Positions 971 to 40,117 of a stretch of 64,000 nucleotides of DNA are shown one piece after another. Below the pieces are notes generated by a model that made no database searches, was not told where the DNA came from, and worked only from the letters and a program-made list of their open reading frames with translations. Every line of letters starts with the position of its first letter. Within the stretch, counting starts at the first letter, position 1. The DNA lies in contig NC_042998.1 of assembly GCF_006345805.1 (NCBI RefSeq), forward strand, positions 7,688,001 to 7,752,000, given 5' to 3'. This DNA is from Octopus sinensis (taxonomy: Eukaryota). The position numbers and the translations under genes are program-made.

Positions 971-1135
971 CTGATCGTTACATATTTTATATTTCGTATG
1001 TTCTCCAGGGCAATCAGCTTGTTTACGGCTCTGGCACATGCGTCGTTTGAATGAAATCCCTTGACCACACGTCTTCATGCAAGGACCATAAGCACTCCAC
1101 GGCGCCCAGTTGCTAAGTACTGGAACACAAACTCC
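971..1135 (-). CDS. Internal exon encoding a thrombospondin type-1 (TSP1/TSR) repeat, ADAMTS/ADAMTS-like/papilin-type extracellular protein
   Basis: Acceptor ttctgcattgcAG|GGA at 1135 and donor CAG|GTaaaa at 971. Length 165 nt, phase 0-0. Peptide GVCVPVLSNWAPWSAYGPCMKTCGQGISFKRRMCQSRKQADCPGEHTKYKICNDQ has the WxxWS..C..TCG.G...R.R.C...C.G...Y..CN TSR pattern. Confidence 0.9.
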
Positions 1136-8519: not shown

Positions 8520-8736
8520 CTTTTCTCTTTTTCTCTCTTTTACTTGTTTCAGTCATTTGACTGCGGCCATGCTGGAGCACCGCCTTTAGTCGAGCAAATC
8601 GACCCCGGGACTTATTATTTGTAAGCCCAGTACTTATTGTATCGGTCTCTTTTGCCGAACCGCTAAGTAACGGGGACGTAAACACGCCAGCATCGGTTGT
8701 CAAGCAATGCTAGGGGGAACAAACACACAAACACAT

Positions 8737-8779
<43 letters not shown>

Positions 8780-8942
8780 CGACAGGCTTCTTTCAGTTTC
8801 CGTCTACCAAATCCACTCACAAGGCATTGGTCAGCCCGAGGCTATAGTAGAAGACACTTGCCCAAGGTGCCACGCAGTGGGACTGAAACCGGAACCATGT
8901 GGTTGGTTAGCAAGCTACTTACCACACAGCCACTCCTGCGCC
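8520..8942 (-). mobile_element. SINE family A, full length
   Basis: Colinear with 1657-2095. Confidence 0.9.
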
Positions 8943-9984
8943 TAGGTACTCTATTTCTTAAAGTATGCCAATTCATTTGGAAGCTTAATTTACAACATAA
9001 TTAAGAAACAGTGATCAGCATATTTGCGTTCGAATCTGTCAGAACGTTTTGAGTATAAATTTGCAAATCTTTGTTTCCGATTATTCTGTAAATAGTGCAA
9101 ATAGCGATTTTCTTATCGGTTCACAGATATCAGCTCTGTTCAGCAAACAAACTGTTCGCTGAAAGAATAAACAAAACCACCGGCTCTTGTTTAGGCTCAC
9201 AGATCCAGGGCTGCTTCCGGTTGACGAGACACAACATACCGAAAACACGGATGTCTCAGAACCCATTGCAACATTGAGCTGAGTGTGCTATGAACACATC
9301 ATAAAAAGGAAAATATTTTCTTCTGAGACGTACACAACAGCGAGTAGAATATTTGTCTGACTCTGTTGGAAAATCAAATATGCAAATCATCGTTTCATCT
9401 CTCGCTGCACACAGTATAAATAACGATTTCAAAATGATAGCATTTCAACCTGAATTCGATAATACGACCTTTACACTAAGTCAAACTGTCACCGAGATTG
9501 TTGATTAACTCTAAATCACTTCTGATGATCTACGGGTACTCTAACCTTAGCTACGCTATCATTTTTTTTAATTTTACAAACGGTTTATCTCAGGAAAGGA
9601 TTTGCAATATGTTCATTTTCTTCAAAGACAGTACAGTGTGAATTTGAGGAGGTCTAGCTCCTATTTCTACCAACATACCAAGAGATCGCGAAGCGACTGG
9701 TGTATGCGAACATAAAAATGAGCTATTATTATCTTGTCCTAGAATATTTTTATAGGAGAATACGGAGGAGAAACCTAGCATTTTCACTATTAGTGCTGCT
9801 TATGCAAGAAGACATAACGTTGCAAGATGCAGAGCTTTCATTCTATTATTTTATTTAGAAATATTTCATCCGTTCTGCTATCGAGTTTGCGTTCACAAGC
9901 CAACACAATAAGGTATTTGGAAAAGAAAACCGTTTGCCATTTAAAATCAATCCCACTAAAATCCTTATTTTCCTTCTGGCATTT

Positions 9985-35225: not shown

Positions 35226-35302
35226 TGGTAAACCATCAAATACACACACAAAAGTACACGCACTTGCGCACGCACATACATACCTGCGTGTATACATATA
35301 TA

Positions 35303-35473
35303 GGCGCAGGAGTGGCTGTGTGGTAAGTAGCTTGTTTACCAACCACATGGTTCCGGGTTCAGTCCCACTGCGTGGCATCTTGGGCAAGTGTATTCTACTA
35401 TAGCCTCGGGCCGACCAAAGCCTTGAGAGTGGATTTGGTAGACGGAAACTGAAAGAAGCCCGTCGTATATATG

Positions 35474-35504
<31 letters not shown>

Positions 35505-35716
35505 TTGTGTGTCTGTGTTTGTCCCCCTAGCATTGCTTGACAACCGATGCTGGTGTGTTTACGTCCCCGTTACTAGCGGTTCGGCAAAAAAGACCGATAG
35601 AATAAATACTGGGCTTACAAAAGAATAAGTCCCGGGGTCGAGTTGCTCGATTAAAGGCGGTGTTCCAGCATGGCCGCAGTCAAATGACTGAAACAAGTAA
35701 AAGAGTAAAGAGAGAG
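35303..35716 (+). mobile_element. SINE family A, full length
   Basis: GGCGCAGGAGTGGCTGTGTGGTAAG ... GAAACAAGTAAAAGAGTAAAGAG. Confidence 0.92.
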
Positions 35717-36337
35717 TATTATACGCATACATCACTTCTTAACCACACGTGACGCAGCTTAAAATACTAAATGATTCCAAGCAATTTAATTTTACGTTTG
35801 CATTGGATATGCTAAAGTCTGAGTTTCAGTGTAATTACTTTGGTTCTGTATGCTATGTGACATTTTAAAAATCTGTGGACATGTGCTTGTGTGTTTATGA
35901 ATTAAAGGTAATTTGTAAATGTAGCCCATTGGTATGTTCATAAGTCTTAAAAACTAAACCGCCGACATGATGACTCTCTTGTACGTGTTCTGTTCGCCTT
36001 TTAAGTTGTTAGTTGTTCAACATTCGAGGTTTCGGGGAAGCTTGCATGCGTGTATATAAAAATGGATGTAAAGTGAGAGGGAAAAAAGGAGAAATGGTCA
36101 CATAGAAAAGGAATGTGGTATAATTTTACTGCCTCATTTGCATACACCGGATTATTTATTTAATAGCTGTTCATAATATCAGTAAATGTAATTTTGTTCG
36201 TGTCCTATGTTGGAGGCGGCGAATCTCTTCGAGGCACGTGGCTGGCTGCGAGTAAACGTTATTGACAAGGCCTATGAAGATCGAAATGGTATGTCACGTT
36301 CTCATTAACCGCTATTGGGACGATTTTATAAATCCTT

Positions 36338-36379
<42 letters not shown>

Positions 36380-36475
36380 TGCTTGTATATATGTATATAT
36401 GCATGTATGTATGCATATATATATATATATATTTATATATATTTATGAAAAGAAAAACAGGATGCAAAGGATTTA

Positions 36476-36562
36476 GCGGTACATATGTTTCTGGCTTTAT
36501 TGGACAGTTTATATCAATGCATAATTGATGTAACATGTAGGTCAATAGCCTTCTTCAGCCGC
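36476..36562 (-). ncRNA. Mirror copy of the type I hammerhead ribozyme
   Basis: Left arm of the palindrome. Core and stems are identical on the minus strand. Confidence 0.75.
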
Positions 36563-36758
36563 GCACAATTACCACACCAAAGACAGGTATTACATTATAG
36601 CAGGTTTGAGAAGAAACGGTATGGACGTTTTGTTTTGGTGTCTCGCTTTGCTATATACGACTATGAGGATTTTCATCCCCAACGTACCTCGTCTTTTTCC
36701 CAAACTTCTTCGCAAACCTGCTATAGTGTAATACCTGTCTTTGGTGTGGTAATTGTGC

Positions 36759-36845
36759 GCGGCTGAAGAAGGCTAGTGACATACATGTTACATCAATTAT
36801 GCATTGATATAAACTGTCCAATAAAGCCAGAAACATATGTACCGC
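36759..36845 (+). ncRNA. Type I minimal hammerhead ribozyme (PLE type), core intact
   Basis: GCGG-CTGAAGA-A-GGCT..50 nt..AGCC-A-GAAAC-ATAT-GTA-CCGC. Stem I is GCGG/CCGC, stem II GGCT/AGCC, stem III the palindrome ACATATGT, and the cleavage triplet is GUA. Confidence 0.75.
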
Positions 36846-36957
36846 TAAATCCTTTGCATCCTGTTTTTCTTTTGATAAATATACCCTATTACCTACACCG
36901 CTAACTAGCATATACAGGTGCTTACAGTTATCAAGTATTCACCCTGAATTTTTTGTA

Positions 36958-37028
<71 letters not shown>

Positions 37029-38240: not shown

Positions 38241-38653
38241 TCTTTTACTCTTTACTCTTTTACTTGTTTCAGTCATTTGATTGAGGCCATGCTGGAGCAC
38301 CGCCTTTAGTCGAGGAAATCGACCCCGAGACTTATTCTTTGTAAGCCCAGTACTTATTCTATCGGTCTGTTTTGCCGAACCGCTATGTGACGGGGACGTA
38401 AACACACCAGCATCGGTTGTCAAGCAATGCTAGGGGGACAAACACACACACACATACACATACACATATATACATATATATACATATATACGACAGTCTT
38501 CTTTCAGTTTCCGTCTACCAAATCCACTCACAAGGCATTGGTCGGCTCGAGGCTATAGCAGAAGACACTTGCCCAAGATGCCACGCAGTGGGACTGAACC
38601 CGGAACCATGTGGTTGGTTAGCAAGCTACTTACCACACAGCCACCCCTGCGCC
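38241..38653 (-). mobile_element. SINE family A, full length, nested in a MITE-like remnant related to 27708-28087
   Basis: Colinear A copy. The flanks GGGATCTTTACC..AAACTTCG and TATTTCGGTAATTTCAACCAATCAA resemble that MITE. Confidence 0.85.
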
Positions 38654-40117
38654 TATTAGCATTTTCGAGAAAAACTTATATTTACGAAGTTATTTCACGT
38701 TAAAATCGTCCTATTTCGGTAATTTCAACCAATCAATGACGTGTATTCAGCTGAATAAAATTACTGCTGTTGCACAGAATCTTAATCCATCGCTTTCTTG
38801 ACCACGGGTTGAATATGAAACAACCACGCGTGCAACAATTGATGAAATTTGCAAACGACACATTGAAATGACAGACGGCGTGTTTGTAAGCTATTGTTTC
38901 GTTGTCAACGACTTTCATTGAATCTAAGAGAGAATGTGACTCGTATAATGAACTGTGTGCGACCAGCATTGATACTGGTTAGAAAGAGGGGAAAAAAGAG
39001 GAAAGAAAAGTATACTGTCATATTTTTCCTGTATTTAATAGACAGATAACAAAACAACAGAAAGGATTAATTAAATTTTAGATTTTGGAGCAACCTTCAT
39101 GAAAAGGGATTCGACCCGTAGCCCTTTGCTTTAACTTCCACGCCTTTTTCTACTTTTGAGAATACATCTTTATTAAAAAGCATTAATAGAGTGAGTCTGA
39201 GAATGAATAGAATGTTTGTACGTCTGTAACAGATGTTACTAACGAGCAAGCGTGGTTTGTTTCATCGTTTCGTTGTTTGTTGCTTGCAAATAACTGTCTT
39301 TATTTATTTATTTATTCATTGCAAATCAACAAAAACGTGTACCATTTTATTTTGTGGTTTGGTGTAGTGAAGGGGGCTAACTTCTCGAAATGTGACTACT
39401 GGTGCTGCTACAACAACAACAACAACAAGTACAACTATTACTACTACTACTACTACTACTAGCAGCAGCTTTTCTCTTCCCTTCTGCTACCATTGTTTTT
39501 ATTAGCTGGTTTCCTCATTCTGCTATTTTCGCTGTTGTTACTATTCCAGACTCATGTCAATCATTATACACACACACATACACACTATTACTTACATGAG
39601 TACATGCATATATATATACATATATATATGAAATAATTTGTACATAGATTTAGGGAGCCACGTGTTTCTCAAAATAATCCCAGCTGATAAAAATAAAGAA
39701 TTTAAAACACGTTTTTTTGCTTGTTTTAGGGTCATCAGAGATAATAAAGCTAGCAGTGAACTTGAAAATATTTGTTGGCGTGGGAGTCAGTTGAGGTTTA
39801 ATAATTCTTTATGAGTGTTTCTTATCTACTCGTCATCAAAGGCCAAAAAGGTAAATTAATTCTAATTTATGGCACCAGCAGTTAATCTTATAAATTAAGA
39901 GATATTCAAGCCGGAAGGAGAATGGAGAGAAAAAATGAACGGCAAAAGCCTTCTCGTTTTTTCCTTCATTACTTGGCATAAAGACGAGGCGTTGAGAGGG
40001 TTTCTTTTATCTGACACATTCAATGCAAATTCTAACTCGCATAATATACTCTCATAATTATGGTAGTGATGGAAATGCTGCTGGCACAATGGTAATTGTA
40101 TGACAAATATTAACATT

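Follow-up and report, generated by a model that had tools for sequence, protein, structure and literature searches.

The element at 36438-36960 of the window, the whole 64-kb stretch of Octopus sinensis DNA analysed here, is very probably one 5'-truncated insertion of a Hydra-clade PLE in which two pLTRs lie head to head, and whose two hammerheads are likely inactive at this site. An inverted PLE end with twin hammerheads is already known in kind; dual PLE hammerheads are described on opposite strands ~100-700 bp apart (PMC4209133, Cervera and de la Pena 2014), inverted 5'-truncated PLE copies with one-sided tails have been reported (PMC8557442, Craig et al. 2021; PMC3846280), and the head-to-head arrangement is called the most frequent form (PMC3846280). 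PLEs are also listed as a partly recent component of an octopus genome (PMC13282606).

Architecture of the insertion

The insertion is built around an inverted repeat of two 178-nt arms (36438-36615 and 36706-36883) which are 97% complementary and have 90 nt between them (Table 1). A sequence-only reading of this DNA had reported a palindrome with two hammerhead motifs, which is real, with arms of 178 nt rather than 168. Its inverted repeat stands but its extent does not, as it overlooked both the ~77-nt tail and the asymmetry of an element that runs from 36438 to 36960. The + copy covers 36610-36960 including this tail, and most of the 90-nt 'spacer' is therefore the longer 5' part of that copy. 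The arms differ at five positions (36712, 36726, 36776, 36781 and 36874 in right-arm coordinates), two of which are in loop II and none in the core or stems; four of the five fall inside the 168-nt limits, in agreement with the earlier count of about four differences that spare the core. A variant at 36735 is common to both arms and absent from the subfamily majority, which points to a single insertion event. That the palindrome is an assembly artefact in the form of a fold-back chimera is highly improbable; none of the sequencing-run contigs compared spans the junction, but the arms differ at five positions, the asymmetry is typical of the family, and 17 other examined loci have the same design with different junctions.

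Table 1. Features of the insertion and its surroundings, in window coordinates
Feature	Position	Strand	Basis
Second coding exon (TSP1 domain) of host gene madd-4/ADAMTSL; element in intron upstream of it	971..1135	-	Pfam TSP_1 E=9e-11; exon mapping
Left-flank target microsatellite, (TA)n-rich	36324..36437	.	sequence
Left arm: inverted pLTR copy, more strongly 5'-truncated, without tail; sense to host pre-mRNA	36438..36615	-	97% match to unit positions 97-274
Left-arm hammerhead motif, predicted cut after 36480	36476..36562	-	descriptor match at 36562; mirrors 36759-36845
AAUAAA hexamer in left-arm loop II, candidate poly(A) signal	36496..36501	-	sequence
Head-to-head junction, few A-rich bases common to both copies	36608..36615	.	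left copy aligns to 36615, right from 36610
Right copy: 5'-truncated pLTR / 3' UTR end of Hydra-clade PLE, including 'spacer'	36610..36883	+	80-97% to genomic copies; homologous to both L105 pLTRs
Right-arm hammerhead motif, predicted cut after 36841	36759..36845	+	descriptor and family alignment
Right-arm stem I	36759-62/36842-45	+	
Right-arm CUGAAGA	36763-69	+	
Right-arm stem II	36771-74/36825-28	+	
Right-arm loop II	36775-824	+	
Right-arm GAAA	36830-33	+	
Right-arm palindromic helix III	36834-39	+	
AAUAAA hexamer in right-arm loop II, 16 nt before predicted cut, candidate poly(A) signal	36820..36825	+	same place in 98/108 copies
PLE 'tail', ~77 nt, on one copy only; leads toward ORF start in tandem elements	36884..36960	+	copy alignment
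Right-flank target microsatellite, (TA)n	36961..37012	.	sequence

When the 2.7-Gb genome was searched at the DNA level, the 40 scored of 1,193 candidates yielded 96 matches, and the 3' half of the motif, used as an exact 21-mer, has 482 genome matches, its sister form 1,560 and reversed-pattern controls none. Among the first 100 listed of the 482 matches, 30 form 15 minus-then-plus pairs within 5 kb, and there is one plus-minus pair and one tandem (same-strand) pair. A survey of 3' ends examined 60 loci, 45 of which were left once 15 overlapping duplicates had been dropped. The 66 3' ends in these 45 loci, which were partly picked with the palindrome as query, comprise 36 with the tail, 30 without it and none that is intermediate, and a TA repeat of at least 8 nt lies within 40 nt after 59 of the 66. 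Two opposite copies occur in 18 loci, with the tail on exactly one copy in every case, and the combination of 5' truncation, an inverted 5' copy and a one-sided tail is present in the window as in all 18 paired loci.

The same survey bears on the reading of the palindrome as a MITE, a non-autonomous DNA transposon whose terminal inverted repeats would be the 178-bp arms. Long inverted repeats, a short spacer and a TA context would all suit a MITE, but the inner ends vary among copies, many copies are solo, the tail is on one end and the sequence runs upstream into an RT-endonuclease element. The varying extent of 5' truncation among copies and the connection with the RT ORF refute it, which leaves it next to no probability. 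Non-LTR retrozymes, which share with the insertion a non-coding PLE-related sequence and a type I hammerhead, form head-to-tail arrays with a hammerhead per unit on one strand (PMC7229834; 10.64898/2026.07.22.740005). This identity was rejected as well, there being one inverted pair here and a single same-strand pair among the 100 listed matches.

The preferred reading of a PLE insertion is in keeping with the earlier suggestion of inverted termini and a PLE pLTR origin, which is borne out by the family copies and a linked RT/endonuclease ORF. The further impression that twin intact ribozymes are something special did not hold, since they are the usual product of PLE insertion and are found in several families here and in published work. 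A second head-to-head twin-hammerhead insertion, of another family, lies in the same madd-4 intron (L163:4000-4560, window-equivalent about 128,000-128,560); its hammerheads have a short loop II and a helix III of CG, and it adjoins a TA tract. Head-to-head hammerhead pairs of other families were also seen at L003:797-851, L094:3102-3205 and L187:1404-1784 and 8733-9120, and several such pairs are inserted near copies of the window's family.

Both copies in the window continue past the cut site, which implies that the template RNA was uncleaved. It is proposed, from the architecture and the PLE literature, that the parent protein nicked the (TA)n tract and that uncleaved element RNA was then copied from two start points downstream of the hammerhead, which would yield one copy with the tail and one inverted copy without it. 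Poseidon PAc of the green anole similarly has two classes of 3' end downstream of its hammerhead, with and without a tail, and its insertions are copied from uncleaved RNA (Frangieh et al. 2024, PMC11167929). PAc belongs to another clade, its hammerhead overlaps the ORF start whereas here it lies ~180 nt before the ORF, and its activity has been measured (PMC11167929); the tail of the present element is ~77 nt long.

The parent element

Three loci (L064, L066 and L067) connect window-like pLTRs to an RT-endonuclease ORF, with a low-complexity 3' UTR of 2-3.6 kb upstream of the pLTR and fragments of RT and endonuclease beyond it. The 3' UTR (L033, L047, L050, L056 and L059) is TG/TA-rich and microsatellite-like, yet 73-89% identical between copies. 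When the RT fragment was used as query, the 150 scored matches included a sister subfamily, ~88% identical, in which three open frames are 842 aa long; these Hydra-type ORFs (L105:2288-4813, L103 and L104) have N/T-rich low-complexity sequence between RT and endonuclease. L105 is organised as pLTR, 842-aa ORF, UTR and pLTR with the same hammerhead on either side of the ORF, and L104 also has pLTRs on both sides of the ORF and a C-terminal endonuclease. The sister subfamily may be recent, given the pLTRs on both sides in L104 and L105. L064 aligns with L105 at 75-84% from the RT to the pLTR. A genome search for a tail of the window's subfamily that runs into an ORF gave no matches, and thus no intact parent of its own subfamily; the window copy is tied to the parent via relatives at 77-86% identity.

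The hallmarks given for the Hydra clade are DKT instead of DKG, a CxCX5C linker, no CCHH motif and CxxC and CxH motifs near the late E and N (PMC8557442). L105 has DKT at 132, the CxCX5C linker at 702, no CCHH (one C only at 720-738), CxxC at 799 and CxH at 829, and the family ends show the (TA)n target preference of the clade. The RWK motif reads RWA in L105, RWK in L122 and RWR in L120. The parent is assigned to the Hydra clade from these motifs and the TA targets, with RWK reading RWA, and is thus a putative member. Pfam found neither RT nor GIY-YIG on L105 and a PDB search gave nothing, and part of the Atlas neighbours of the parent protein carry GIY-YIG. The Neptune clade was rejected as the CX2-5CxxC linker and the CCHH motif are absent.

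Described members of the Hydra clade include Penelope-13_HM and the octopus family Hydra-1_Obim (PMC8557442). The clade resembles the present family in its C-terminal endonuclease, a hammerhead near the 3' end and (TA)n targets (PMC8557442), and the entry for Penelope-13_HM gives an inverted 5'-truncated copy with one hammerhead per strand (PMC8557442 File S2). Hydra-1_Obim has a hammerhead sequence other than that of the window and is hence a different family. Hydra elements are given as 'generally <3 kb', in contrast to ~5 kb or more here, with the 2-3.6 kb of low-complexity 3' UTR.

The PLE fragments in two loci, L068 and L061, are unrelated to the element and were set aside as mere neighbours. 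Two other sequences adjoin family copies, an LTR retrotransposon with two long open frames of 350 and 1,081 aa (L071:2079-6271, +) and a cysteine-patterned open frame (L045:1889-2440, +) that may resemble an IL-17-like cystine-knot protein.

The hammerhead motif and its conservation

Each arm reads GCGG (stem I), CUGAAGA, A, GGCU, a 50-nt loop II, AGCC, A, GAAA, CAUAUG, UA and CCGC. The type I core (C3 U4 G5 A6 N7 G8 A9, G12 A13 A14, A15.1-U16.1, H17) is present in both, and H17 from the descriptor, which is A36841 on the + strand and 36480 on the - strand, coincides with the cut positions that had been predicted. The sequence-only reading had proposed that the motif be sought with a descriptor and with Rfam. 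A simple hammerhead descriptor run over the 64-kb window gave two matches, exactly the two arms, each with the layout of a type I hammerhead with a palindromic helix III as had been claimed. Rfam matched neither arm; there were no matches at the gathering score, and the 36 matches at E<=10 include no hammerhead, which is likely due to the 50-nt loop II.

The motif resembles the minimal type I hammerheads of PMC4209133 in having CUGANGA followed by one unpaired base, a 4-bp stem I, a palindromic helix III and U-rich flanks, and differs from them by the extra base between stem II and GAAA and the poly(A)-type hexamer in loop II. At the extra base the G10.1-C11.1 pair next to G12 is absent, with A (66/108 copies) or C (41/108) between stem II and GAAA standing opposite an unpaired A to give an A.A or A.C mismatch. 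The canonical pair is present in the lineage B hammerheads of the same genome, and many Hydra hammerheads are tabulated with the same layout in the form of an unpaired U.U (PMC8557442 File S2).

In folding, the arms are no more stable than shuffled sequences (z +0.84 and +0.77), and the mismatches avoid the core at chance level (P=0.70 for none of five in the 12 core positions, 0.33 for core plus stems), so the intact core at this locus says little. Conservation was assessed on 108 distinct copies (149 matches before removal of duplicates) with seven clusters of at least three. Columns that differ among the seven subfamilies, which are not independent of each other, number 0/12 in the core, 1/23 in the stems and 49/111 in the loop and flanks. 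The core is intact in 81/90 copies not chosen by motif and in 39/45 of the window's subfamily. The window copy departs from its subfamily majority at only 3/148 positions, which suggests that it is young. Private substitutions in the window subfamily affect 11/1,575 positions of core and stems and 59/4,995 elsewhere (p=0.12), and they are also rarer in core and stems in the sister subfamily (p=0.039). Such a deficit is not given by pure decay, but hidden master lineages together with alignment filtering can produce it.

Close copies are uninformative for covariation. RNAalifold on 14 of them yields a non-hammerhead consensus at -4.2 kcal/mol, and the covariation of the hammerhead structure in this set is not above shuffles. 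Between lineages, compensatory changes are found in stem I, stem II and helix III; stem I occurs as GCGG/CCGC, UCGG/CCGA, UUAG/CUAA and UUUC/GAAA and helix III as CAUAUG, CAAUUG and CGAUCG. Some copies depart from the palindrome, and helix III is palindromic in most lineages, down to ~40% RT identity. The genome-wide covariation check that had been proposed thus turned out in favour of the motif, with a conserved core and stems that covary between lineages, if not above shuffles among the 14 close copies. An invariant core with covarying stems across distant lineages suggests that the motif is selected in active elements.

A chance look-alike that would be functionless even in an active element could account for the missing Rfam match, for folding no better than shuffles, for covariation in the 14 close copies that does not exceed shuffles and for the A.A or A.C mismatch at the base of stem II. 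It is hardly credible, however, as the core is invariant while loop and flanks diverge, stem I covaries, helix III is palindromic in most lineages down to ~40% RT identity, the position in the pLTR is that of all PLEs, and Hydra hammerheads are tabulated with bases left unpaired on either side of stem II (PMC8557442 File S2). Rather than a look-alike, the motif would be a hammerhead kept by selection in active lineages, not at this locus.

Host gene and predicted fate of the RNA

The element is located in the ~191-kb first coding intron of octopod madd-4/ADAMTSL, the first coding exon of which lies at window-equivalent 192,658 (L169), is 36 nt long and has a GT donor. Exon mapping of this - strand gene confirms the earlier placement in an intron of a TSP1 gene with the left arm sense to the pre-mRNA. 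The reading of the host exon as that of an ADAMTS protease was rejected, since neither PF01421 nor PF17771 had a match close to the window when the genome was searched with them.

In secondary-structure prediction the bare 87-mer forms stems I and II at a probability of 0.5-0.65. In one whole arm stem I is lost and the hammerhead fold carries a penalty of 7-11 kcal/mol, and in the whole insertion the hammerhead fold is predicted to cost ~122 kcal/mol relative to the duplex. Read-through RNA from either strand contains the antisense arm first and one ribozyme only, which means that two ribozymes are unable to dimerise in cis as the palindromic helix III calls for (PMC4209133). The sequence-only reading had envisaged a competition of cleavage and duplex formation; an antisense arm that comes first, one ribozyme per strand and a predicted preference of ~120 kcal/mol for the duplex speak against a competition on an equal footing, and self-cleavage at this site would be unlikely. 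In the madd-4 pre-mRNA the antisense arm would be made first and the sense arm would then be captured in a predicted 178-bp duplex, a likely ADAR substrate that would be discarded with the intron. ADAR editing of duplexes is described as a general fate of young repeats (PMC9989829), and by analogy the likely fate of the arms is such a duplex and its editing.

Within the window, 15 other inverted pairs of at least 150 nt within 5 kb are listed, some of them redundant. One inverted pair of a common dispersed repeat (35300-35712 and 38248-38656, 92%), 2.5 kb apart, encloses the element and is a second possible duplex. Contigs from 4 of 20 sequencing runs were compared with the locus; none spans it, and neither their beginnings nor their ends pile up there. 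A contig of run X1, guessed to be RNA and with a depth of 8, covers 36806-36878 with T>C changes at 36836, 36840 and 36846 which are absent from 108/108, 108/108 and 107/108 genomic copies, respectively; judged by its loose end, the contig comes from another copy. The clustered T>C changes hint weakly at A-to-I editing of antisense RNA and are not used as evidence.

A role for the host is conceivable in that the left-arm hammerhead or its AAUAAA could have been recruited to cleave the madd-4 pre-mRNA, or to terminate it, within the 191-kb intron. The left arm is sense to the pre-mRNA with an intact core, and its AAUAAA precedes the cut by 16 nt, with U-rich sequence following. Such co-option is nevertheless very unlikely. 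The core is equally intact in those 81 of the 90 copies not chosen by motif, the copy is young with 3/148 positions off the majority, the antisense arm precedes the left-arm hammerhead in the transcript, the rest of the intron holds no partner for this family's dimer-type helix III, and PLE hammerheads are described as cleaving poorly alone (PMC4209133) or as needing the element protein (PMC11167929). The locus itself matters little, being retrotransposon debris in a very long intron that contains many other inverted repeats.

The long loop II and its poly(A)-type hexamer

The ~50-nt insert in stem II that the earlier reading had singled out as unusual is indeed present as a 50-nt loop II in both arms, and it is this part that looks undescribed. 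Loop 2 measures 3-10 nt in all 26 Hydra rows of File S2 of PMC8557442, as opposed to 41-52 nt here where helix III is a 6-nt palindrome, and the descriptor of PMC4209133 allows a loop 2 of 3-10 nt, so that the present motifs fall outside it. In 19 hand-picked long-loop representatives 45-77 nt lie between the core boxes, and short-loop hammerheads of other families occur in the same genome as well. Compared with published loops of 3-10 nt, these octopus Hydra hammerheads thus look new at the sequence level. The literature search found no paper on octopus PLE hammerheads or on a poly(A)-type signal within a hammerhead, and Lunse et al. 2017 or the Cervera supplement may show long loops.

The loop contains AAUAAA or AUUAAA, the two principal poly(A) signals, in 13/19 representatives, 16-27 nt before the cut, with a hexamer just after the cut in 3/19 and none near in 3/19; the background frequency per 55 nt is 8.9%, and shuffling the individual loops gives 1-34%. 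AAUAAA and AUUAAA switch within one lineage. In lineages A and B the stretch 8-40 nt downstream of the cut is 50-66% U. AAUAAA lies just after the cut in L185 and L187 and inside loop II before the cut in their close relatives L189 and L190. The hexamer in loop II may be regarded as a lead, as the representatives are related (about 4/8 groups positive), the DNA is AT-rich and the pattern was noticed post hoc. A tentative and rather doubtful interpretation is an undescribed long-loop hammerhead, in more than 2,000 genome copies, whose helix II, lengthened by 40-55 nt, carries the element's poly(A) signal 16-27 nt before the cut, and in which self-cleavage and host polyadenylation would compete for one 3' end.

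Implications

Surveys in which loop II may not exceed 10 nt overlook a large group of animal hammerheads, here more than 2,000 exact matches to the two 21-mers. The low-complexity 3' UTRs of these elements may contribute to the amount of simple repeats in the octopus genome. The family also includes long open ORFs between pLTRs (L104 and L105), in a PLE clade whose mechanism is unstudied. The PAc hammerhead cleaved only with protein, and cleavage was not needed for insertion in vitro (PMC11167929). In light of this result from the anole, the hexamer in loop II, should it function as a poly(A) signal, would be relevant to the question of what hammerheads do for PLEs.
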